A stretch of DNA of 41,136 bases, taken from positions 1 through 41,136 of the forward strand of contig CAZOWT010000003.1 in the NCBI GenBank assembly GCA_964583345.1. The letters run 5' to 3'. Below are positions 30,718 to 41,072 of the stretch, piece by piece. The notes beneath the pieces are model-generated. The model made no database searches. It saw only the letters and a list, made by a program, of their open reading frames with translations, and was not told the DNA's origin. How positions within the stretch are numbered: the stretch's first letter is position 1; each line of letters begins with the position of its first letter. Made by a program: the position numbers and the translations under genes. This stretch comes from an uncultured Clostridia bacterium (GTDB lineage: Bacteria > Acidobacteriota > Aminicenantia > UBA2199).

Positions 30718-32244
30718 ATGAAGTTGAAAAACGGCGTGTTTTTTTTTCTGGTTTTTTTTTTCTTTCTTTCCCTGATGTCGGAAGAGAAGGTGCGTGAATA
30801 CCTGAAAACCGGGGATTGGTATCCCTCCGGGAAATCCGAGCTATCTGATTTAATGAATCAACTTTTTTCCCGGGCGGAAAAGGTCGATATCCCCGGCAAT
30901 ATCGTGGGAATTGTTTCCCCTCATGCCGGTTTTGCCTATTCCGGCCTCTGCGCGGCCATGGCCTACCGGCAGCTGGAAGGAAATCCTCAAATCAGCAGGG
31001 TAATCATCCTGGGAACTTCCCACCATGCCGGTTTTTACGGGGCCTGTGTCTCCGATTTCACCCATCTGGCCACTCCGCTGGGAAAACTGGAGGTGGACAG
31101 GCAGGTGGTAGACAAACTGGCAGCAGAGAGACTCTTCCGCCTGGACAACCGGGTGATGCTCTATGAGCATTCCATCGAAAACCAGCTGCCCTTTATCCAG
31201 ACGGTTTTTAAAAACCGGGATATCCGGGTGGTTCCCATCCTGTTCGGTCAGCTGGACCATAAAGATTATCCGGTCATGGCCAGGATCATCGGTAACTTTA
31301 TCGATTCCGCGACCCTGGTGGTGGCCAGCAGTGATCTCGACCATTACGGACAAAACTTCGGTTATACCCCGTTCAGCCGCAATATCAAAGCGAATCTCAC
31401 TCGGCTGGATACCGGGATGATCGAGAATATTTCCCGCCTGGATATTGATGGGTATTTCCGGTACAAGGAAAAGACGGGTATCACCATGTGCGGTTTTGTG
31501 CCGGTAGGCGTGCTGCTGTATTTATACCCGGCCCGGGGCCATGGGGCCAGGCTAACGGATTACAGGAAATCCGGCGACCGAAACCAGGATTATTCTCTCA
31601 GTGTGAGCTATGCGTCTCTGGTCATATGGCAAAAGAAACCGGGTCACGGCGGCGGCGGCAACCGGGCGGGAGAAATCGGCCGGGAATCCGGCCTCTCCGC
31701 AACCGAAAAAAAAGATCTCCTGTCCATGGCCCGGGATACGCTCCGCCTTTTTTTCCAGCAGGCGGATGCCCGGGCGGTAATAGAAAAAAAATATCGAATA
31801 TCGGACAATTTGAAAAAGGAACTCGGGGTTTTTGTGACCCTGAAAAAGAACCAACAGCTCCGGGGATGTATCGGTTCGCTTATCGGCCGGAAACCGCTCT
31901 ACCTGGAGGTCATGGATGAGGCCATCAACGCCGCGGTGCGGGATCCCCGGTTTATCCCGGTCAAACAAGAGGAACTGCCCGGACTGAAAATTGAAATATC
32001 AGTGATGACCCCGCTGCAAAAAATTACGGATTATAAACGGATTCGCCTGGGAATTGACGGTGTGATTATTAAAAGCGGCTATTCCCAGGCGGTGTATCTG
32101 CCCCAAGTTGCCACTGAAACCGGCTGGAATCTGGATGAGTTCCTGAGCCATCTGTGCGAGAAAGCCGGCCTGGCATCCCGGGCATATCGGTCCCCGGATA
32201 CCGAATTCTATGTGTTTCAGGCCCAGGTATTCGGGGAAGACTGA
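30718..32244 (+). CDS. Fusion of AmmeMemoRadiSam system protein B (MEMO1 family) and protein A (AMMECR1 domain), with an N-terminal signal or anchor
   Basis: 508 aa. The hydrophobic N-terminus is MKLKNGVFFFLVFFFFLSLMS. The Memo part carries IVSPHAGFAYSG...GTSHH...SSDLDHYG. A Gly-rich linker KKPGHGGGGNRAG follows. The AMMECR1 part carries GVFVTLKKNQQLRGCIGS...DPRF. Confidence 0.85.
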   Translation: MKLKNGVFFFLVFFFFLSLMSEEKVREYLKTGDWYPSGKSELSDLMNQLFSRAEKVDIPGNIVGIVSPHAGFAYSGLCAAMAYRQLEGNPQISRVIILGTSHHAGFYGACVSDFTHLATPLGKLEVDRQVVDKLAAERLFRLDNRVMLYEHSIENQLPFIQTVFKNRDIRVVPILFGQLDHKDYPVMARIIGNFIDSATLVVASSDLDHYGQNFGYTPFSRNIKANLTRLDTGMIENISRLDIDGYFRYKEKTGITMCGFVPVGVLLYLYPARGHGARLTDYRKSGDRNQDYSLSVSYASLVIWQKKPGHGGGGNRAGEIGRESGLSATEKKDLLSMARDTLRLFFQQADARAVIEKKYRISDNLKKELGVFVTLKKNQQLRGCIGSLIGRKPLYLEVMDEAINAAVRDPRFIPVKQEELPGLKIEISVMTPLQKITDYKRIRLGIDGVIIKSGYSQAVYLPQVATETGWNLDEFLSHLCEKAGLASRAYRSPDTEFYVFQAQVFGED

Positions 32245-32256
32245 TATGTTTAGGCC

Positions 32257-33243
32257 ATGACCATCGATAGAAGGAAATTCGGAAAAACACTCCTGGCCTG
32301 CGCGGCCGGTACGGGAACCGGCCTGTTTTTCCCCACTGTGATGCCCGGGGCCGATTCAGGAAAGAGCCAGGTTTTGATTGCCCGTTCCCAGGCGTTGATC
32401 CGGGACAATCACGGCCACCTGCGCCGGGAAAAGGTTTTTGCGGTCGTCAACCGCTTGCTGATGCGTCTGACCGGCAATCATGACCCGGCAGCGGCCTGGA
32501 AATCGCTGTTCTCTCCCGGAGAAAAGGTGGGTGTCAAACTCAGCTGCCTGCCCGGTAAGCGCCTATCCTCCAGCCCGGGCTTGGTGATGGCCATTGCCGA
32601 CGGCCTGAAATCCGCCGGGATCCGGGAGCAGGATATTTTTATCTGGGATCGGACCGACCGGGAACTGATCGAGGCCGGATTTGATATTTCCCACCGGGGG
32701 ATTAATGTGTTAGGGACCGATAATATTCGCGGGGGAGGATACTCGGACCGGGTGGAAATATCGGGGAGTGTGGGCACCTGTTTCAGCCGGATTCTGGAAG
32801 CCATGGATGCGCTGATCAGCGTTCCGGTGCTCAAGGATCATGATATTGCCGGGGTTTCCATCGGCATGAAAAACTTTTTTGGGGCCATTCACAATCCCAA
32901 TAAATTCCACCAGAATGCCTGCGATCCCTATGTGGCGGATCTCTGTCGCCACCCGTTCATCAAAAACAGACTGAGGCTGATAGTCTGCGATGCGTCCCGG
33001 GTTCAGGTTCATAACGGGCCGGCTTTTTTCCCCGGATATGCCTGGGAGTATGGCGGCATACTGGTCAGCGCCGATCCGGTAGCCCTGGATTATACCGGCT
33101 GGCAGATTATCGAGAAGAGAAGAAAGGAACTGGGGCTGAAATCACTGCGGGAATCCGGCAGGGAACCCGCCTACATATTTACGGCTGGAAAACTTGGTTT
33201 GGGCCGGGCCAACGAAAAAGCCATACGGGTGGTTGAAATATGA
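32257..33243 (+). CDS. DUF362-domain protein with a twin-arginine signal
   Basis: 328 aa. MTIDRRKFGKTLLACAAGTGTG has a Tat-type RRxFxK motif plus an h-region. The remainder (VGVKLSC...VLKDHDIAGVSIGMKNFFG) resembles DUF362, called from recalled family features. Confidence 0.65.
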   Translation: MTIDRRKFGKTLLACAAGTGTGLFFPTVMPGADSGKSQVLIARSQALIRDNHGHLRREKVFAVVNRLLMRLTGNHDPAAAWKSLFSPGEKVGVKLSCLPGKRLSSSPGLVMAIADGLKSAGIREQDIFIWDRTDRELIEAGFDISHRGINVLGTDNIRGGGYSDRVEISGSVGTCFSRILEAMDALISVPVLKDHDIAGVSIGMKNFFGAIHNPNKFHQNACDPYVADLCRHPFIKNRLRLIVCDASRVQVHNGPAFFPGYAWEYGGILVSADPVALDYTGWQIIEKRRKELGLKSLRESGREPAYIFTAGKLGLGRANEKAIRVVEI

Positions 33244-34394
33244 AAAAATCCGTTGAACAAAACCAGATTTCCCGCAGGAAGTTTGTCAAGCAGGGTGTTC
33301 TGGCCGGATTCTGCTGTCCGCTGCTGCTGGCAAATTCCCGGTTGTTCGCCTTTGATTCCGGCAATATCGATACCGGCATCCGGCCTGAAAATGCCCGGGA
33401 AGCCCGTTATTATGAGAAAATCGCGGATAAAAAGATTATTTGCCGGCTCTGCCCGCATGAATGCCGGATTGCCGACCGGGAGCGGGGCGCCTGCGGGGTG
33501 CGGGAAAATCGGGGCGGCACCTATACCACCCTGGTTTACGGCAATCCCTGTTCGGTCCACGTGGACCCGATTGAGAAAAAACCCATGTTTCACTATTACC
33601 CGGCTACCCAGGCTTTTTCCATTGCCACTGCCGGCTGCAATTTTGTCTGCCGGTTCTGTCAAAACTGGGAAATTTCCCAGAAACGGCCGGAACAGATCAA
33701 ATCCATTAACCTTTTCCCGGCCGAGGTGATCCGGTCGGCAAAAAACAATGCCTGCCGCACCGTGGCCCACACCTACACCGAACCGGTGATTTTTTTTGAA
33801 TACATGCTGGATTGCTCCATCCAGGGGAAAAAGATGGGAATTCCGAATGTGATGATCTCCAATGGCTATATCCAGGAAAAACCCATGCGGGAACTCTGCC
33901 GGTATCTGGGGGCGGTCAAGGTCGATTTGAAGGCGTTTACGGAAAAATTTTACCAGGAGCAGTGCAGCGGAACCCTGAAGCCGGTGCTCGATACCCTGCA
34001 GGTCCTTAAGGATGAGGGCATATGGTTTGAAATCGTGGTGTTGATTATTCCCACGCTCAACGACAGTAGGAAGGAGATCGATGACATGACCCGCTGGATT
34101 GTCAAAGAATTGGGGCCGGACGTTCCCGTGCATTTTTCCCGCTATTACCCGACTTTCATGCTCAAGAATATCCCTCCCACTCCCCCGAGCCTGCTGGAGA
34201 TGGCCCATAAAATTGCCCGCGACAATGGCGTGCACTATGCCTATGTCGGCAACATCCTCTCGGATGCGGCCAACACCTATTGCCACAGCTGCGGTAAATT
34301 GCTCATCGAGCGTTTGGGTTTTTCCACCGATATCGTGGGGATGAAGGGCAATACCTGCAAACATTGCGGCCAGAAAATTCCCGGGGTTTTTTAG
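33240..34394 (+). CDS. AmmeMemoRadiSam system radical SAM enzyme (PflA-like) with an N-terminal twin-arginine signal-like extension
   Basis: 384 aa. The N-terminus ISRRKFVKQGVLAGFCCPLLLANSRLFA is a near-consensus Tat signal. It is followed by CRLCPHEC...GACGVREN and the radical SAM motif CNFVCRFCQNW. It overlaps the DUF362 gene by 4 nt. Confidence 0.85.
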   Translation: MKKSVEQNQISRRKFVKQGVLAGFCCPLLLANSRLFAFDSGNIDTGIRPENAREARYYEKIADKKIICRLCPHECRIADRERGACGVRENRGGTYTTLVYGNPCSVHVDPIEKKPMFHYYPATQAFSIATAGCNFVCRFCQNWEISQKRPEQIKSINLFPAEVIRSAKNNACRTVAHTYTEPVIFFEYMLDCSIQGKKMGIPNVMISNGYIQEKPMRELCRYLGAVKVDLKAFTEKFYQEQCSGTLKPVLDTLQVLKDEGIWFEIVVLIIPTLNDSRKEIDDMTRWIVKELGPDVPVHFSRYYPTFMLKNIPPTPPSLLEMAHKIARDNGVHYAYVGNILSDAANTYCHSCGKLLIERLGFSTDIVGMKGNTCKHCGQKIPGVF

Positions 34395-34915
34395 AAAAAT
34401 CTGGTTAGTTGTTTCCGAACGAATGCCCGAATGGCACGGTAATATCGCCGGCCGTTGATATAAATCAGATAAACCTGAAAAAAGGTTTTCGTCCGAATCG
34501 GCTGATGGAAACGATCCGGCAAAAAAAACGCTTGTCCGTCCCGTTCGACCCGGGTGACCACCCCGATGATGTTTTTATCGGTTATGACGGCATCGACGAC
34601 TTGCTGCCGGTCTGCCCTGATGACAAATGAATTCTTTTTGATTTTGGCCACCCGGTGCAGTACCAGCCTGTTGTTTGCCGGATGCCGGAATGCCACCACT
34701 TCCCCCGGAGAGGGCATTATTCCCTTCAGGGGAGATATCGTAATAAAGTCATTGTTCCGAATGGCGGGAGTCATGCTGCTGCCGGTGGCCCGGAAGCGGA
34801 AAGATGCGCCTTTGTCATGAACTGCCCGCATGAGTTCCATCAGTATCCTGCCGGATATGGACAGGGACTTTTCTTTGCTTTCGGGATTATGCATTCCAGG
34901 TTTGCTTCCGGTCAC
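34391..34915 (-). CDS. S24/S26-family (signal peptidase I / LexA-like) serine peptidase; candidate leader peptidase of the RiPP-like operon
   Basis: 174 aa with the Ser motif ATGSSMTPAI, GEVVAF, and the Lys motif VLHRVAKIK. There is no N-terminal TM helix. It overlaps the upstream radical SAM gene by 4 nt. Confidence 0.7.
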   Translation of the reverse strand: MTGSKPGMHNPESKEKSLSISGRILMELMRAVHDKGASFRFRATGSSMTPAIRNNDFITISPLKGIMPSPGEVVAFRHPANNRLVLHRVAKIKKNSFVIRADRQQVVDAVITDKNIIGVVTRVERDGQAFFLPDRFHQPIRTKTFFQVYLIYINGRRYYRAIRAFVRKQLTRFF

Positions 34916-36105
34916 AGGTATGGTTTTACCTTTAAAGATATTCCAGTTTTTTTTACTCTTTCCTTCCAGTTTTTAACCGTCCAGGCATTTTCCCCGGTTT
35001 CCAGCAGTCCAAGTAGGCGCGCCTGGGCATGGGCCACCCGGCAGAGGTATTCCACCGGGGTATCCAGGGTGCCGTGTTCTGACCAGGATTTTGCCGGGCA
35101 CTGTTCGCAGAGGTTCTTTAAAAAACAGCGGGCGCAGCGTTTCAGATAATCCGGATTTTCAGCCGTGATATTTTTTATCCGGCATCGGTTTTCTTGCAGG
35201 GCTGTTTTCAAATCCTGATGTTTTAAATCAATGAGCAGGTCGGGATGTCGAAGCAGCAGGCAGGGTTGAAGCATACCGTAGGCGTCGATACTGACCGTAT
35301 GACCGGCCCCGCAATCCAGCAATTTTTTCCCGGAAGGACCCAGGAATCGAAGGCAGAATTGCCTCATATCACGGTCAAACAGCTCCCGGTCTCGAGCCAT
35401 GAATGCAACAGCTTTTTCCGGTTTCGGCCGGAGGCGTTCGATGGCCCGGTTTTTTCGGTTTGAGTCATGCCGGGCCCGCAGGTCATACAGATAGGAATAA
35501 GAGGGGGACCGGTCCATTCCGGGCAGGGAGCCGGCCCAGGATTCGAATGCTTTGATTTCGCCCTGGTTTTGCGGCAGAAGGGCACCCTTGACCACAAAAG
35601 GTATGTGGTGTTTTAACAATAGATCAATTCCCTTTCTGAATTGTTCGAATGAACCGGGAATACGTGTAACTGCCTCGACCGATTTTTTCCGCATGCCGTA
35701 AACCGTGACTTCGATCTTTTCGAGCGGAGGGATAGCTAAAAAAAGCTTTGCCAGCGATTTGGTGATCAGGGTGGCATTGGTAAACAACCGGACCCTCATT
35801 CCCAGTCGCCGGGCGAACCGGTACAATTCGGGAAAATCCGCTCTCAGCAGGGGCTCACCCCCGGTAAAACGGACCGTTAGGGCGCCCAAAGAGGCCGCCT
35901 GTTTCAGTATGGCTTTCCATTCGTCGGCGGTCAGTTCCCGGGAACGGGCTTCCGGATCATCCGGCGGACGGTTGATGTAACAATGGATGCAATTTTGGTT
36001 GCAGCGCTCGGTTAGTTCGATATCCAGGGAAGGCAGTTGCGGGTGGCCTTTTTTCCACAGAGAACGGTATCCGGGATCCCTTTTTGAGTATCCATCAGCG
36101 GCCAT
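34912..36105 (-). CDS. Radical SAM/SPASM-domain peptide maturase (paralogue 3 of 3)
   Basis: 397 aa with CNQNCIHC (CxxxCxxC), GGEPLLR, and the SPASM-type motifs CGAGHTVSIDAYGMLQPC and CARCFLKNLCEQCPA. Confidence 0.85.
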   Translation of the reverse strand: MAADGYSKRDPGYRSLWKKGHPQLPSLDIELTERCNQNCIHCYINRPPDDPEARSRELTADEWKAILKQAASLGALTVRFTGGEPLLRADFPELYRFARRLGMRVRLFTNATLITKSLAKLFLAIPPLEKIEVTVYGMRKKSVEAVTRIPGSFEQFRKGIDLLLKHHIPFVVKGALLPQNQGEIKAFESWAGSLPGMDRSPSYSYLYDLRARHDSNRKNRAIERLRPKPEKAVAFMARDRELFDRDMRQFCLRFLGPSGKKLLDCGAGHTVSIDAYGMLQPCLLLRHPDLLIDLKHQDLKTALQENRCRIKNITAENPDYLKRCARCFLKNLCEQCPAKSWSEHGTLDTPVEYLCRVAHAQARLLGLLETGENAWTVKNWKERVKKTGISLKVKPYL

Positions 36106-36406
36106 GAACCCGGGTTACCATTTTTCGCTTTACAAATTCGTTAATCAGACCCATCACATCTTTCTGAATTTCGGATAATGGTGAATCATATTCGGTTTCC
36201 AAAAACTGAATGATTTCCTCCACGGTTTTTTTTCCATCCAATTGTCCCCAGATGGCTTTACCGGTTTCGTTCAGGGTGAACAGATCTTCTTCCATATCCC
36301 CGATTCCGCTGACCAGAGGGATAAGGATCAATTCACCTTCGATCTCTCGGAACACAATTTCTTCTGAGGGTTCGAAAATATCTTTTATGTGAATGGTTGG
36401 TTTCAT
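36095..36406 (-). CDS. PqqD-family peptide chaperone (RiPP recognition element)
   Basis: 103 aa. VFREIEGELILIPL...LFTLNETGKAIWGQLDGKKTVEEIIQFLETEYD is the typical PqqD/RRE pattern. A GGAG RBS lies 7 nt upstream. Confidence 0.8.
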   Translation of the reverse strand: MKPTIHIKDIFEPSEEIVFREIEGELILIPLVSGIGDMEEDLFTLNETGKAIWGQLDGKKTVEEIIQFLETEYDSPLSEIQKDVMGLINEFVKRKMVTRVHGR

Positions 36407-36436: not shown

Positions 36437-36679
36437 TCAACTGGTTGTCCACTGGCGGCAAATCTGATAACTGTTGTTGATAAAACAGGTGCCGAAATAC
36501 CCATCCGGGCCCTGGCCCACCTGGCCGGTTTTGCAGAAAAGTAGCACCTGTTCCTCGGGCGTTTTATTGGCCAGGCTGATTAACAGCGGTTTCTCCCACC
36601 TTTTCTTTTTTATCATGCTATTTTTTATCATATTACAAAAAGGGTATTTTGTCAATAAATCCTGAAATATTGCTTTCAT
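36437..36679 (-). CDS. Candidate RiPP precursor peptide P1 (longest ORF 80 aa; the paralogue-supported start at ATG 36616 gives 59 aa)
   Basis: MIKKKRWEKPLLISLANKTPEEQVLLFCKTGQVGQGPDGYFGTCFINNSYQICRQWTTS aligns residue-for-residue with P2 and more loosely with P3. It lies directly upstream of the PqqD gene. Confidence 0.6.
   Translation of the reverse strand: MKAIFQDLLTKYPFCNMIKNSMIKKKRWEKPLLISLANKTPEEQVLLFCKTGQVGQGPDGYFGTCFINNSYQICRQWTTS
36627..36655 (-). promoter_or_regulatory. Internal sigma-70-type promoter TTGACA-N17-TATGAT in front of P1
   Basis: The minus strand reads atttaTTGACAaaataccctttttgtaaTATGATaaaaaatagcATGata. The -35 (36655-36650) is perfect, the spacer is 17 nt, and the -10 (36632-36627) matches 5 of 6. 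The ATG at 36616 is 10 nt after the -10. Confidence 0.5.
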
Positions 36680-36717: not shown

Positions 36718-36894
36718 TTAACTCTGGGTCCATTGTTTGCAGGTCGTTCCCTGGGGAATCCGGCAGGTTCCGAAGAATCCCTCGGGTCCCTGTCCGGGTA
36801 TACCGGTCTTGCAAAATAGCAAAACATGTTCCTCGGGTTTTTTGATTTCCAGGATGATTAATCCGGGTTTTGTCCACTTTTTTTGCTTTTTCAT
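36718..36894 (-). CDS. Candidate RiPP precursor peptide P2 (58 aa), not in the ORF track
   Basis: Manual reverse translation gives MKKQKKWTKPGLIILEIKKPEEHVLLFCKTGIPGQGPEGFFGTCRIPQGTTCKQWTQS with a TAA stop at 36718-36720. The ATG overlaps the TGA of the upstream radical SAM gene (ATGA at 36891-36894). Confidence 0.6.
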   Translation of the reverse strand: MKKQKKWTKPGLIILEIKKPEEHVLLFCKTGIPGQGPEGFFGTCRIPQGTTCKQWTQS

Positions 36895-38018
36895 GGTTTC
36901 GGTCCGGTTTTATCCAGGTTTTTTGCCCGGGCATGGGCCACCCGGCAAAAATAGTCCACTTTGCGGTCCAGATTCCCGGTTTCCAGGTGGGCATGGGCCG
37001 GGCACCACAGGCACAGGTTGATGATAGGACAGATTTTGCATTCAAGTGTCATGGGGTTTTCTTCGGCTCTTGTTTCGACTACCCTGGGTGTGAACCGGTT
37101 CCAGGCTTCTTCCAGATTGCCATTTCGCCAGTCATACCGGAAATCCGGATGGTTGAGCGAGGAGCAGAGGCGAAACAATCCGTCACTGCCCATGACGAAA
37201 CTTCCGTTGCCCATGCCGCAAAGAAAGAGACGGTTATCGGTTTTTTCCTCTTTGTCGGTCCGGATATATGAATGAATATTATTCTCCAGTACCTTAAATC
37301 GCTCGGGATCCGAAGTTTCCAGTTTTACGATCTCTTCCGGTGTCAGCCGCTCTGCTTGAATGTCCCGGTTCCGGTCAGGATCGCGGTCGTATCTCAGGTG
37401 CAGGAAGGGATCAAAACGGTAGTAATCCTTTGTTTTCTGGCGGCAGAAGCCGGAGATTTTCGCAAACTCGTGGAAATTGCTTCTAAGCATCATGGCCTTC
37501 AAACGGATTTTAACCTCTCCGTTGGTCAGCAACTGTAGGCCCCGCATGAATGTTTTATATGAACCCGGTGTGCGGGTTACGGCTTCATAGGTTTCTTCAG
37601 TAACCCCGTAAACCGATACCTCAATGTCTCGGGGAGGGTAGCGCCTGAACAATTTGATATGTTCTCCGGTGATCAGGTTGGCGTTGGTAAATACGGATAC
37701 CAGCAGGCCTTTCTTCTTGAGCAACAGGTAAATATCGGGAAAGTCCCGGCGCAGCAGCGGTTCGCCTCCGGTCAGCAGGCACCAGCAGGCTCCCAGGGAA
37801 ACGGCCTCATCGGCCAGTCGGTTTATCTCGGAAATGGTCAGCTCTTTTTCCCGGGCTGTGTTGTCTCCGGCCGGCAGGTTGATGTAGCAATGCCGGCAGT
37901 TGTTGTTGCAGCGGGCGGTCAATTCAAGCTCGAAGGAAATCAGGGATCTACGGGATTTGATTTTGTCCCACAGGGCAAACTCGGGAAGGGCAATGGAGCT
38001 GATATATGATTTCTTCAT
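36891..38018 (-). CDS. Radical SAM/SPASM-domain peptide maturase (paralogue 2 of 3)
   Basis: 375 aa with CNNNCRHC, GGEPLLR, and the SPASM-type motifs CGMGNGSFVMGSDGLFRLC and CKICPIINLCLWCPA. The C-terminal YFCRVAHARA parallels YLCRVAHAQA in the 397-aa paralogue. Confidence 0.85.
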   Translation of the reverse strand: MKKSYISSIALPEFALWDKIKSRRSLISFELELTARCNNNCRHCYINLPAGDNTAREKELTISEINRLADEAVSLGACWCLLTGGEPLLRRDFPDIYLLLKKKGLLVSVFTNANLITGEHIKLFRRYPPRDIEVSVYGVTEETYEAVTRTPGSYKTFMRGLQLLTNGEVKIRLKAMMLRSNFHEFAKISGFCRQKTKDYYRFDPFLHLRYDRDPDRNRDIQAERLTPEEIVKLETSDPERFKVLENNIHSYIRTDKEEKTDNRLFLCGMGNGSFVMGSDGLFRLCSSLNHPDFRYDWRNGNLEEAWNRFTPRVVETRAEENPMTLECKICPIINLCLWCPAHAHLETGNLDRKVDYFCRVAHARAKNLDKTGPKP

Positions 38019-38794
38019 GGTTTCCTAAGCAATGCGCCGCCTTTCATCTGGCCATTCGTCTTTTCAATATGCACAATGTCCATCCCGCTTCTTTCAAGCT
38101 CTGATTTAAGGGCGTCTACCGAAACAAAGGTATGGATGAATTCCCCGTTCCTCCAGAGTATGTCACCGGTTTCATATTTCAGGTTTCCAAGTGTCAAGCC
38201 GGCAAACAACTTTTTGAAAATTTCCTTCCAGGCCGAAATATTTTTCTCGGTTTTCCACTGAAATTGCAGGAGGGCATAACCACCGGGCCGGAGCATGCTT
38301 TTCACCCTTTTCAGCATTTCAACCCGCCGTTTGCGGGTGGGGATGGCGGAATACAAATCCGGTGAAAACCAGATGATATCGAAGGAATCGGGGGGGAATT
38401 CGATTCGGGATAATTCCTGGACACTGACTTCAATATTCAGCCCCTGATCGATTAAGTTATGGCGGGCACTCTCTGCCATGGCCTCAACAAAATCAACGCC
38501 GTGAACCTCAAAATCCAGGCGGGCCAGGGGAAGCGCTTCCCGGCCCCCGCCAACGCCGATTATCAATATTCTTCCTCTTTTGAAAGGAATTTTTAGTATC
38601 AGTTTTTCCTCGATTTCATTGAAACCGGAAAACAAGAGATCTCTTCGGGTGAAGGATGCAATGCTGTCTGGTTTGGCATAGGTTTGGCGGCTGAATTTCA
38701 CCAGGTCATCCGGCCTCATCAGTACCACTGCCAGGGACTGGATGAACTTTCCCAGTGAAATGAACCGTTTTGCACATCGGATTCTAAGATTCAT
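38015..38794 (-). CDS. Class I SAM-dependent methyltransferase
   Basis: 259 aa with the motif I sequence ILIIGVGGGREALPLA, then FEVHGVDF and LRPGGYALL. It overlaps both neighbours by 4 nt. Confidence 0.8.
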   Translation of the reverse strand: MNLRIRCAKRFISLGKFIQSLAVVLMRPDDLVKFSRQTYAKPDSIASFTRRDLLFSGFNEIEEKLILKIPFKRGRILIIGVGGGREALPLARLDFEVHGVDFVEAMAESARHNLIDQGLNIEVSVQELSRIEFPPDSFDIIWFSPDLYSAIPTRKRRVEMLKRVKSMLRPGGYALLQFQWKTEKNISAWKEIFKKLFAGLTLGNLKYETGDILWRNGEFIHTFVSVDALKSELERSGMDIVHIEKTNGQMKGGALLRKP

Positions 38795-40779
38795 AGATGT
38801 CCTGCTGTCAATTTATTTAAAAGATCCTTAACCTCATTGCCCTTATTAAAATATAAAAAATAACAGGGGACTTCAATAACGATTTTTTCCAGCAGATCCA
38901 GGCTTTTCTGCCACCAATCCCCGGTGCCGAGGGGTTTGATTAAAAAAGACAGCAGTTTGCCGATGATGATCTGTTTATCTTGAATTTGTTCCAGCCGGTT
39001 ATCCGGGGATTTTTCCAGAAAAAGCATGGCTTTCAGAGGTGCAGATGAAGGTGAAACCTCAGGAATGTCCCCGTGGCTCCAGGTCCCATGAATTTTAAAT
39101 CCCTCCGGCCAGTTTCTGACAATATTCCGGTCATCACACAGAATTTCCGTTTCATCCTGAAGAATCCGGGTCAGGGTGGATTTCCCGGCCCCCGAATGAC
39201 CCATAAGAAGAAAGCCTGAACCCTGGTGAATGACACCGCTGGAGTGGAAATAACAACCTTCATGGTATGAAAGAACCTGAGCGATCAACATCTGGTCGGA
39301 AGGCATCAGGGATAACGATGTCACGTCTCCTTTGATAAAGTATTTTTTCTTGGTATCATCATTATAAAGCCGGTTGAAGCGGTAATCCCGGCTGAAGATC
39401 CCGACCTGGGGATAGGAGGTTCTCCGGCCTCCTGAACCGATACAGAAATAAACCCAGTTGTTTCGATGTTTGAAAATTTTCCAGGGTGGCTGGTGAAACA
39501 CCGGTTGTCCCATTTTATTCATTTGAAGGGGTGGATCGGAAAAAAAATGCTGGATGATGGTGTTGTTGTCTCCCGGACCGTCCACCTCAAACGCCTTGAA
39601 TTTGGGATGAAAGGTATTTTTCCGAATAGGCAGTTCCGATTCCAATTGAATGGTAATATTGGCAATTTCATAAAATCGCCGGTGATTCTTTTCCCAGCTT
39701 TTTTTTAATTTCTGTTTTTCCCGGGTGATATCGCAAAGATATTCGATTTTTTGATGATAATTACTGTGCTCCAGGTAGCGATATGCCGGGCAACTGGAAC
39801 AGCTATCGGCAATATCGCAGGAAAAGCAATCCCCGGTTTGAAGCGGCTGGAGGTTGAACTGGTTTTTCAGGGAAGGAATAAATGTATTCCAGATGGTCTC
39901 AAAGGAATTTTTTTTCAGACTTTTTCTGGTAGAGGAGTCCTTGGCAAAAGCACAGAAACTCAAATCACCATAGGGATCGACATGAAATTCCTGCCGGGTC
40001 CGAATGCAGGAAGCAAACACTCCGGTATCGGACATGTTTCCTTCCACATCAATCGATTCTTCACGATTTGCAGGGAGGTGTGAAAAGGGAGGACTAAAAT
40101 CAAGCTCAGCCGCCTGGGCAGGAAGGAGCCGCTGGCCTATAATTTCACGGTTCTTTTTCAAGTTATTTTCGGCAGACAGGTACAGCCAGGAGGCTCCGTA
40201 GCGCCAGGAGGGTGTCAGCGATTCTGCCAGCCGGACCATTTCTGAAAGGTGAATAATATTATCTTTCATGGGCACAATCTGCATTGTGAAATTGGTTCCG
40301 GCTTCTTTCAGGTAGGCGATTCCCTGCATCAGCAATTGAAAGGATCCAGGAGTCCGGGTGATATGGTCATGGGTTTTTTCATCGGCACCGTACAGGGCAA
40401 CCAGCTTGATTCCCTCTCTCTTCAAAAGCCGGGCAATCGAAGGGGTTATCAGGGTGCCATTGGTATTCAGTGTGTAACGATTGGTTTTTCTGGTTATATA
40501 ATCGAAAATTTCAGGAAAATCAGCTCTCAATAGCGGTTCACCTCCGGAAATGTACCACTGGCGGCAGCCCATTCTTCTGGCTTCATCCACCAGTTTTTTA
40601 ATTTCATCAATCTGGAGTTCAGCCTTTATTTTTTTCGAAGCCGGTGGTATTCTCACCCAGCAGTGGTGGCAGTTCAGGTTGCAGCGGTAGGTGAGGTCCA
40701 GCGATCCCTTTCGCGGGATGCGGAGAGAACTGCAGGGCCTGATAGTTGTAAGATAATCATTCATTTCAGCATTGATCAT
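38791..40779 (-). CDS. Radical SAM/SPASM-domain maturase (paralogue 1 of 3) fused to a C-terminal HPr-kinase-like P-loop domain
   Basis: 662 aa. The N-terminal half carries CNLNCHHC, GGEPLLR, CIRTRQEFHVDPYGDLSFC and CFSCDIADSCSSCPA. The C-terminal ~300 aa contain FHSSGVIHQGSGFLLMGHSGAGKSTLTRILQDETEILCDDRNIV, which mirrors the HprK catalytic core (H-G-V...G-x-G-V-L-I-x-G-x-S-G-x-G-K-S...D-D). Confidence 0.8.
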   Translation of the reverse strand: MINAEMNDYLTTIRPCSSLRIPRKGSLDLTYRCNLNCHHCWVRIPPASKKIKAELQIDEIKKLVDEARRMGCRQWYISGGEPLLRADFPEIFDYITRKTNRYTLNTNGTLITPSIARLLKREGIKLVALYGADEKTHDHITRTPGSFQLLMQGIAYLKEAGTNFTMQIVPMKDNIIHLSEMVRLAESLTPSWRYGASWLYLSAENNLKKNREIIGQRLLPAQAAELDFSPPFSHLPANREESIDVEGNMSDTGVFASCIRTRQEFHVDPYGDLSFCAFAKDSSTRKSLKKNSFETIWNTFIPSLKNQFNLQPLQTGDCFSCDIADSCSSCPAYRYLEHSNYHQKIEYLCDITREKQKLKKSWEKNHRRFYEIANITIQLESELPIRKNTFHPKFKAFEVDGPGDNNTIIQHFFSDPPLQMNKMGQPVFHQPPWKIFKHRNNWVYFCIGSGGRRTSYPQVGIFSRDYRFNRLYNDDTKKKYFIKGDVTSLSLMPSDQMLIAQVLSYHEGCYFHSSGVIHQGSGFLLMGHSGAGKSTLTRILQDETEILCDDRNIVRNWPEGFKIHGTWSHGDIPEVSPSSAPLKAMLFLEKSPDNRLEQIQDKQIIIGKLLSFLIKPLGTGDWWQKSLDLLEKIVIEVPCYFLYFNKGNEVKDLLNKLTAGHL

Positions 40780-40841: not shown

Positions 40842-41072
40842 TCATGAAGTATTATTCTGCGCCTGACAGGCGGCGTGGCATGCGCTCGACTGCCTACATT
40901 GATTGAAGGCCGAGTTCGGACCTGTAAAATTTTGGGTTTTACAATTCAGCGTCAGCACCTCGTCGGGATTGCTCCGGCATAATATTACCAGCTGGGGCCT
41001 TTCCCAGAACTTTTTCTTGTCATATTTTTTTGCTGTATCCATTTTTTTCATTTCTTTTTCAGTTTCCTTCAT
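40842..41072 (-). CDS. Candidate RiPP precursor peptide P3 (76 aa from the first ATG; the start is uncertain, with alternative Met codons at residues 8 and 11)
   Basis: MKETEKEMKKMDTAKKYDKKKFWERPQLVILCRSNPDEVLTLNCKTQNFTGPNSAFNQCRQSSACHAACQAQNNTS shares W-x-[KR]-P-x-L, P-[DE]-E-x-L, CKT, GP, spaced Cys and the C-terminal TS with P1 and P2. It is the first gene of the operon. Confidence 0.55.
   Translation of the reverse strand: MKETEKEMKKMDTAKKYDKKKFWERPQLVILCRSNPDEVLTLNCKTQNFTGPNSAFNQCRQSSACHAACQAQNNTS

Follow-up and report, generated by a model that had tools for sequence, protein, structure and literature searches.

Among peptides that are made on ribosomes and modified after translation (RiPPs), HprK-like kinases are known from lasso peptide systems, where PadeK, ThcoK and PsmK phosphorylate the strictly conserved C-terminal Ser of their precursors and a His-Lys-Asp-Asp motif has been reported to be essential (PMC9266682). 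Clusters for linear polyphosphorylated peptides (LPPs), described in 2026, have a core composed of a RiPP recognition element (RRE), a signal-peptidase-like peptidase, an HprK-like kinase and an optional NTP transferase; LppK was shown experimentally to phosphorylate its precursor, and LppS to be an RRE-dependent leader peptidase (PMC13381572). A further related system, the SynChlorMet cassette (ScmC TIGR04249, ScmD TIGR04248, ScmE TIGR04250 and ScmF TIGR04251), is a computational definition only. Here we describe a stretch of 41,136 nucleotides (henceforth the window) from an uncultured Clostridia bacterium placed by GTDB in the Acidobacteriota (Aminicenantia; UBA2199; assembly GCA_964583345.1, contig CAZOWT010000003.1, positions 1 to 41,136 of the forward strand), in which a single gene encodes a radical S-adenosylmethionine (SAM)/SPASM maturase continuous with a P-loop domain related to ScmC and HprK/P. 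Judged by its gene content, the window appears to hold a complete RiPP gene cluster of an uncharacterized family related to the in-silico SynChlorMet cassette. The C-terminal domain of the fusion is truly, if remotely, homologous to the HprK/P catalytic core and keeps the catalytic set intact.

The fusion protein and its kinase-like domain

The two halves of the fusion (Table 1) meet near residue 365, where an earlier reading of the bare sequence (the original prediction) had set the beginning of a separate C-terminal domain with the layout of the HprK/P catalytic core. This boundary is correct, because stand-alone homologues of ~296-340 amino acids (aa) align over 97-99% of fusion residues 367-662. 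In the AlphaFold2 model of the full-length protein, with a predicted local distance difference test score (pLDDT) of 84.5 and a predicted template-modeling score (pTM) of 0.78, the helix formed by residues 346-366 passes straight into a strand formed by residues 367-372, and there is no disordered linker between the two domains. The same 662-aa protein occurs, identical throughout, on three contigs from three samples, and the fusion is therefore not an assembly error.

Residues 511-554 of the fusion, FHSSGVIHQGSGFLLMGHSGAGKSTLTRILQDETEILCDDRNIV, carry a His, a P-loop and an Asp-Asp pair which align with those of the Coxiella HprK (3tqf), the Walker A motif lying exactly where the original prediction had placed it. 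H512, K533, D549 and D550 reproduce the His-Lys-Asp-Asp motif of the lasso-peptide kinases and do not vary among 44 fusions or among 36 sequences of stand-alone proteins or domains; G527, H528, G532, K533, S534 and T535 are likewise invariant in the 44 fusions. Across the entire family the invariant residues are H512, G527, K533, T535, D549, D550 and R551, and the invariant motifs specific to the family include GTWSHGD and WW.

In a scan with the full-length protein the domain draws generic P-loop families only (ABC_tran, RsgA and AAA_29). To reach the HprK and ScmC profiles the domain was scanned alone at a permissive E-value, which gave matches to NCBIfam ScmC (E=4e-8, 32.8 bits, cut-off 125), HprK_rel_B (E=1.6e-6, 27.5 bits, cut-off 200) and HprK_rel_A (12.8 bits, cut-off 200). 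Thus, the comparison with Hpr_kinase_C and the HprK-related kinase A and B models proposed along with the original prediction does return HprK-type models, all of them well below their curated cut-offs. When 36 members of the family were scanned, HprK_rel_B was matched by 36 of 36, ScmC by 35 of 36 (with an E-value never better than 2.4e-12) and the HPr(Ser) kinase model TIGR00679 by 20 of 36 at E<=1e-3 (best 9e-8); the last of these results therefore indicates homology to, rather than membership in, the HPr(Ser) kinase family. The precomputed Pfam annotation of the window protein is PF04055 (Radical_SAM) with PF27840 (ScmC), the latter being precomputed also for all of the listed homologues. 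As the domain lies far below the SynChlorMet cut-offs, the most fitting description is a sister family inside Pfam ScmC, and not NCBIfam ScmC.

A predicted structure tells the same story as the motifs. Residues 367-662 were modeled with AlphaFold2 from an alignment of the family (pLDDT 92.3, pTM 0.89); the model recovered 51 matches at E<=1e-3 in a Foldseek search against the PDB, and the best 50 of these 51 are all either ATP-dependent phosphoenolpyruvate carboxykinase (PEPCK) or HprK/P, both of the PEPCK-like fold superfamily. The alignment with PEPCK extends over ~290-400 columns and takes in the entire model of 296 residues, its N-terminal beta subdomain included. The domain has in common with HprK/P and ATP-dependent PEPCK the nucleotide-binding-domain fold, the Walker A motif and, on either side of it, a His (upstream) and an Asp-Asp pair (downstream); it differs in having only 8-17% sequence identity to them, in its own invariant motifs (noted above) and in its setting, as HprK/P functions in carbon catabolite control whereas the domain in the window sits in a peptide-maturation context. 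The fold, the catalytic motifs and the profile matches across family members together bear out the HprK/P catalytic-core layout. On the other side of the balance lie the remoteness of the individual matches: the domain scores only 13.4 bits against Pfam Hpr_kinase_C (PF07475; gathering cut-off 33.3) and 14.8 bits against TIGR00679 (E=0.013; cut-off 240), the Foldseek TM-scores are modest (0.25-0.5), and a sequence search of the PDB with the family profile recovers HprK chains at E=0.035-0.29 only. The same search with the single domain gives P-loop matches to ABC ATPases only.

The N-terminal half is a more conventional enzyme. It is matched by Pfam Radical_SAM with 86 bits (E=3e-24) and more weakly by Pfam SPASM (18.5 bits against a cut-off of 21.5), and it possesses the full set of seven SPASM cysteines, at positions 258, 276, 318, 321, 327, 330 and 349. 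C33, C37 and C40 of the CxxxCxxC motif and the SPASM cysteines are invariant or nearly so in the 44 fusions. These features are common to the radical SAM/SPASM maturases of the sactipeptide and ranthipeptide type (SkfB, AlbA and PapB) and also to SuiB and PqqE, although the domain reaches none of the curated family cut-offs. The nearest solved folds are those of SkfB, SuiB, PqqE and anSME, all of which lack a kinase-like C-terminal domain, their chains spanning only the N-terminal half of the model.

We surveyed the distribution of the C-terminal domain using one genome per GTDB species. Relatives are encoded by 280 of these species-level genomes, from Omnitrophota, Thermodesulfobacteriota and other deltaproteobacterial lineages, Planctomycetota and Aminicenantes/Acidobacteriota, and also from Victivallales, Dehalococcoidia, Chlorobiaceae and the archaeal Methanomicrobiales and Methanotrichaceae. 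For a count of architectures 79 loci were kept, a fusion being defined as a single frame of ~645-715 aa with the CxxxCxxC motif 30-45 residues from the N-terminus and a stand-alone gene as one of ~300-350 aa. By this definition the domain is fused in 53 loci and stands alone in 17, the remainder being cut by contig ends. A search with the full-length protein recovered 1111 clusters (90% identity) at E<=1e-50; the best 120 of them are all 626-694 aa long, combine PF04055 with PF27840 and are named only "radical SAM protein". The profile of the domain matches 425 clusters at E<=1e-30 (50%-identity representatives), with both architectures present. A literature search found no publication on the fusion architecture or on the SynChlorMet cassette. 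The remark in the original prediction that no such fusion was known to have been described thus holds for the searchable literature, but the fusion is not rare: it is the majority architecture of a large and phylogenetically broad PF04055+PF27840 family. Three loci have two genes with an ScmC domain each, these being two fusions in L006 and L013, and a fusion together with a stand-alone gene in L076.

The precursor peptides and their C-terminal tails

The three short open reading frames (ORFs) of the cluster, P1, P2 and P3, terminate in CRQWTTS, CKQWTQS and CQAQNNTS respectively, in keeping with the final residues (WTTS, WTQS and NNTS) given in the original prediction. P3 has a leader of the form FWERPQLVIL...DEVLTLNCK. 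P1 probably starts at a Met within its ORF (36631 or 36616), which would give a peptide of ~59-64 aa. This is suggested by a sigma-70-like site (11/12 positions, 36627-36655 on the minus strand) inside that ORF, as well as by the alignment of the family.

To place these peptides in a wider context, precursors were picked in related loci with a hidden Markov model (HMM) of the leader that was built from such loci, and a further set of metagenome contigs was picked by the leader alone, with a query derived from a 10-sequence leader alignment. About 190 precursors from ~130 loci combine a W-x-K-P-x-L leader with a Ser or Thr end. The leader motif of the family, K-K-x-W-x-K-P-x-L-x-V-L-x-R-x-x-P-E-E-x-V-L-x-x-C-K, fits the recognition motif of lasso RREs, [Y/W]xxPx[L/V/I]. 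The 64 genome loci gave 107 leader-HMM matches, of which 88 end in Ser and 13 in Thr (101 together), and the six exceptions are spurious or truncated; among 99 peptides from the metagenome contigs, 92 have such an end (75 Ser, 17 Thr) and the seven exceptions look truncated. The combined frequency of Ser and Thr in the rest of the cores is 0.18, from which a naive binomial calculation gives P ~1e-66 for the genome set and ~1e-58 for the metagenome set, values that cannot be taken as true probabilities, since the peptides share common ancestry. No other hydroxyl position is conserved across the family within the final 12 core residues. Hence, a C-terminal Ser or Thr is a near-invariant feature of the whole family and no coincidence of three peptides.

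The position of the last Cys is constrained as well. It lies exactly six residues before the C-terminus (C-x5-[S/T]-COOH) in 82 of the 107 genome peptides and in 86 of the 99 metagenome peptides; P1 and P2 conform to this spacing, and P3 has C-x6-S. The number of cysteines varies with the architecture of the ScmC protein: loci with a stand-alone gene have 3-Cys precursors in 15 of 16 cases, whereas those with a fusion have precursors with at least four Cys in 70 of 75, where a CxxC or CxxxC pair formed with the additional Cys immediately precedes the tail. Both types occur together in the window, which is unusual: the two core maturases are adjoined by P1 and P2, the fusion gene by P3. The original prediction had treated the three peptides as one set of substrates of the fusion; all three do end in Ser, but they are not equivalent, as P1 and P2 are of the 3-Cys type otherwise seen with stand-alone ScmC, and P3 is of the 4-Cys type that co-varies with the fused radical SAM domain.

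Two of the related loci have precursor genes in large numbers. In a Dehalococcoidia metagenome-assembled genome (MAG; L005, 10900-18700) ten of them lie beside a single fusion gene, an unusually large substrate repertoire. The metagenome contig Ga0315291_10000789 (L163, 5400-10200) has seven genes for precursors that carry the leader of the family and end in C-x5-[S/T] tails, and there is no radical SAM, PqqD or ScmC gene anywhere in the 15.5-kb locus; this set looks like an orphan precursor array.

A proposed maturation route and its alternatives

These observations can be assembled into a possible maturation route. The lasso-like W-x-K-P-x-L leaders of P1-P3 would be bound by the PqqD-type recognition protein, after which the two conserved core radical SAM/SPASM enzymes would cross-link the Cys-rich core, probably as thioethers, by analogy with the SPASM maturases of sacti- and ranthipeptides. 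In 4-Cys precursors such as P3, the fused radical SAM domain may install an additional link involving the extra Cys. The ScmC domain would use ATP to phosphorylate the hydroxyl of the C-terminal Ser or Thr, as happens in paeninodin-type lasso systems, and in the loci that have it NTP_transf_5 might decorate the phosphate, as in pseudomycoidin. Finally, the signal-peptidase-like S24 protein would cut off the leader. We infer the thioether chemistry, the phosphotransfer, the acceptor residue, the order of the steps and the cleavage of the leader from such analogies.

That the ScmC domain phosphorylates the terminal Ser or Thr is, in our estimate, somewhat more probable than not. The comparative data have strengthened this proposal and make it the best-supported one, its basis being the analogy with PadeK, ThcoK and PsmK. 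Several points count against it. LppK phosphorylates Ser3 of the core, not the C-terminus, and rejects Thr (PMC13381572), and ~15% of the precursors in the present family end in Thr. Complete clusters with the family leader but without ScmC, in which the terminal Ser/Thr might be lost, were sought as a control; the six loci of at least 9 kb in which ScmC was not found are all truncated by contig ends, degenerate or orphan precursor arrays, and there is no complete cluster among them. The C-x5-[S/T] spacing is strict, a hint that the terminal residue might join in ring chemistry and not simply carry a phosphate.

The alternative that fares best, although we hold it to be unlikely, is that ScmC is an active kinase whose acceptor lies elsewhere, either at another Ser or Thr of the core or in a non-peptide substrate; the terminal residue would then serve as the acceptor of a radical SAM-made thioether from Cys(-6), or as a recognition determinant for a maturase or peptidase. 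The precedent of LppK acting on a core Ser, the fit of the fixed spacing to a cross-link and the richness of the cores in Ser and Thr would agree with this possibility. It has to contend with the lack of any other conserved hydroxyl in the last 12 core residues, and with the fact that those characterized RiPP HprK-like kinases whose precursors have a C-terminal Ser act on that very residue.

Class III and class IV lanthipeptide synthetases carry out phosphorylation followed by elimination. It is conceivable that ScmC similarly phosphorylates the terminal Ser or Thr only transiently, the phosphate being eliminated to leave dehydroalanine or dehydrobutyrine and the mature product being free of phosphate; attack by Cys(-6) could then yield a lanthionine-like ring at the C-terminus, or the terminal enamide could be hydrolyzed to a C-terminal amide. 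The placement of the last Cys exactly six residues ahead of the terminus in most precursors of both sets, and the occurrence of both Ser and Thr at that terminus, are in line with such a sequence of events. We nevertheless regard it as quite improbable, since profile scans of the window proteins found no homologue of a lyase or cyclase in the cluster, the P3 peptide has the longer C-x6-S spacing, and the presence of NTP_transf_5 in 17 of 80 loci implies that the phosphate persists and receives further decoration, as it does in pseudomycoidin. A related and more speculative proposal, to which we give a similarly low probability, is that the covalent joining of the kinase-like and radical SAM domains, taken with the strict spacing of the C-x5-[Ser/Thr]-COOH tail, reflects a new two-step C-terminal chemistry, in which phosphorylation is an obligatory activation or positioning step for a ring with Cys(-6). 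If this were true, the ring would be formed by radical chemistry or by elimination and addition, yielding a C-terminal macrocycle by a route distinct from the lanthipeptide, sactipeptide and ranthipeptide pathways.

A non-kinase role appears very unlikely. The ScmC domain could be an ATP-binding or non-catalytic module for docking or scaffolding, bringing the precursor's C-terminal tail to the radical SAM active site, and the tight fusion of the two domains (no flexible linker, pTM 0.78) as well as an N-terminal beta-rich subdomain to which no function is assigned (residues 367-~490) might be taken in its favor. Yet in many phyla, and in stand-alone and fused forms alike, the His, the Lys, Ser and Thr of the P-loop, the Asp-Asp and the Arg never vary, and the very existence of stand-alone forms means that the domain works without covalent attachment. 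Lastly, the notion that two neighboring genes were joined only artificially (through loss of a stop codon, a frameshift or mis-assembly), to which a related locus with the gene called as two pieces of 126 and 505 aa might lend color, is already refuted by the comparative data, namely the identical protein on three independent contigs, the 53 fused loci over many phyla with the best 120 of 1111 homologue clusters all full length, and the stand-alone locus L001, in which ScmC is not encoded downstream of an orthologous radical SAM gene, so that simple read-through cannot explain the fusion. The locus with the divided gene is L003 (826-2784), in which a 126-aa radical SAM fragment is followed by a 505-aa protein containing ScmC; an error in sequencing or a frameshift probably accounts for the split in that contig.

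The gene cluster and its relation to known systems

The cluster occupies one strand and in the direction of transcription runs from P3 through the fusion, the methyltransferase, radical SAM B, P2, P1, PqqD and radical SAM A to the S24 peptidase (Table 1), the last of these being the probable leader peptidase. The start of the methyltransferase gene overlaps the stop codon of the fusion gene and several other stop and start codons in the cluster overlap likewise, which is consistent with a single operon; a scan for promoters and terminators gave nothing above background. Upstream of P3, the genes on the longer source contig are unrelated and lie on the opposite strand, and the cluster therefore begins at P3. 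The genes immediately beyond it on that contig (L083, 7174-8361) encode an ATP-sulfurylase and an EamA transporter.

Table 1. Features of the fusion protein and of the surrounding cluster (positions are those of the window)
Feature	Position	Strand	Basis or remark
Precursor P3 (76 aa), 4-Cys core	40842-41072	-	ORF, leader HMM match; directly upstream of fusion gene
Radical SAM/SPASM-ScmC fusion gene	38791-40779	-	ORF, 662 aa
Radical SAM/SPASM maturase domain of fusion, residues 1-366	39682-40779	-	Pfam and SPASM match
CxxxCxxC motif CNLNCHHC, residues 33-40	40660-40683	-	
ScmC/HprK-like P-loop phosphotransferase domain, residues 367-662	38794-39681	-	PF27840, AlphaFold, Foldseek; stop codon 38791-38793
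His512 (FHSSG), counterpart of the conserved catalytic His of HprK-type kinases	39244-39246	-	Invariant; aligns with Coxiella HprK 3tqf
Walker A/P-loop GHSGAGKST, residues 527-535 including K533	39175-39201	-	Computed from sequence
Asp549-Asp550 (LCDDR), counterpart of the catalytic Asp-Asp of HprK-type kinases	39130-39135	-	Invariant; aligns with LVCDD of 3tqf
Class I SAM-dependent methyltransferase (259 aa)	38015-38794	-	Pfam Methyltransf_25 E=6e-16
Core radical SAM/SPASM maturase B (375 aa)	36891-38018	-	Profile matches, orthologues
Precursor P2 (58 aa), 3-Cys core	36718-36894	-	ORF, leader HMM match
Precursor P1 (ORF 80 aa), 3-Cys core	36437-36679	-	ORF, leader HMM match
PqqD-family RRE (103 aa)	36095-36406	-	Pfam PqqD E=2.5e-15; weak lasso PqqD and ScmD matches
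Core radical SAM/SPASM maturase A (397 aa)	34912-36105	-	Profile matches, orthologues
S24/S26-type peptidase (174 aa), archaeal signal peptidase I-like	34391-34915	-	Pfam Peptidase_S24 E=2.6e-7; NCBIfam sigpep_I_arch E=7.5e-10

In 80 related loci a radical SAM gene is present in 78-79, PqqD in 64, the S24 peptidase in 54, NTP_transf_5 in 17 and an orthologue of the methyltransferase in 12; these counts are lower bounds because many of the loci are truncated. The suggestion in the original prediction that the methyltransferase further modifies the C-terminus or the phosphate finds no support, since the gene is an accessory one, its orthologues (40-48% identity) being confined to those 12 loci. 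By comparison, radical SAM B has orthologues (51-84% identity) in most loci of both architectures and radical SAM A (52-76% identity) in nearly all loci. In the one stand-alone locus compared (L001) both of these have an orthologue and the fused radical SAM domain has none. A 300-aa radical SAM protein of that locus was considered as a conserved third maturase and rejected as idiosyncratic to it.

Convergent with the cluster, and on the plus strand (30718-34394), lies an AmmeMemoRadiSam system comprising a Memo/AMMECR1 fusion (508 aa), a DUF362 protein (328 aa) and a radical SAM enzyme (TIGR04337, E=7e-112), the 3' ends of its radical SAM gene and of the S24 peptidase gene overlapping by 4 nt (34391-34394). 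It is probably unrelated to the RiPP cluster, as it is present in only 3 of the 80 related loci. A 397-aa ORF antisense to its radical SAM gene (33171-34364, minus strand) has a low-complexity translation with no family support and is almost certainly a spurious shadow ORF.

The cluster in the window combines traits of several described systems. With sacti- and ranthipeptide-type systems it shares Cys-rich precursors and a separate PqqD RRE. With the HprK-like kinases of RiPPs (PadeK, ThcoK, PsmK and LppK) and their clusters the family shares the His-Lys-Asp-Asp motif and a PqqD-type RRE gene, and a subset of its loci also the NTP_transf_5 partner; as in the lasso systems, the precursors have a [Y/W]xxPxL leader and a conserved C-terminal Ser, and as in the LPP clusters there is a signal-peptidase-like leader peptidase. 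Unlike the lasso systems, the cluster has no lasso cyclase or B2 protease genes. The present family further differs from the HprK-like RiPP systems in that its peptides are Cys-rich and accompanied by two or three radical SAM/SPASM maturases, in that one of these usually has the kinase-like domain covalently attached to it as a fusion, in having Thr as well as Ser at the terminus, in being found mainly in uncultured anaerobic lineages and archaea rather than Bacillota, and in scoring far below the cut-offs of NCBIfam HprK_rel_A and HprK_rel_B. In a Deltaproteobacteria MAG (GCA_016927065.1; L001, 1-9900) a cluster with a stand-alone ScmC is located directly downstream of Wzz, Poly_export, glycosyltransferase and NTP_transf_5 genes, and this location beside capsule or polysaccharide genes resembles the placement reported for the LPP clusters of Bacillota.

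Together with its precursors, the fusion defines a RiPP family in at least 280 species-level bacterial and archaeal genomes, with more than 1000 clusters of fusion proteins. The family would link radical SAM cross-linking to HprK-type phosphorylation, both predicted here and not previously reported as a pair, and would extend the module of HprK-like kinase, RRE and signal-peptidase-like peptidase beyond lasso peptides and Bacillota. It leads to the predictions that the acceptor is the terminal Ser or Thr, that the fused radical SAM domain serves the fourth Cys and that C-x5-[S/T] is a functional unit.

In its parts list the cluster also resembles the SynChlorMet cassette: the window has two PqqE-like radical SAM/SPASM proteins, an ScmC-like domain and a homologue of PqqD. 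ScmC, ScmD, ScmE and ScmF are the top or near-top NCBIfam matches of the window proteins, and the same parts recur in the related loci of the family. The scores, however, stay far below all four cut-offs (ScmC 32.8 against 125, ScmD 27.8 against 100, ScmE 91.0 against 400 and ScmF 92.7 against 400), and the cluster is therefore a sister system rather than SynChlorMet as defined. It also differs from the cassette in three ways: ScmC is fused to a third radical SAM protein, precursors have been identified, and the core includes an S24 peptidase. What is new in comparison with the known systems is the pairing of a kinase-like module with the predicted radical SAM/SPASM cross-linking, mostly as a covalent fusion, and the identification of the precursors and of their C-x5-[S/T] terminus.

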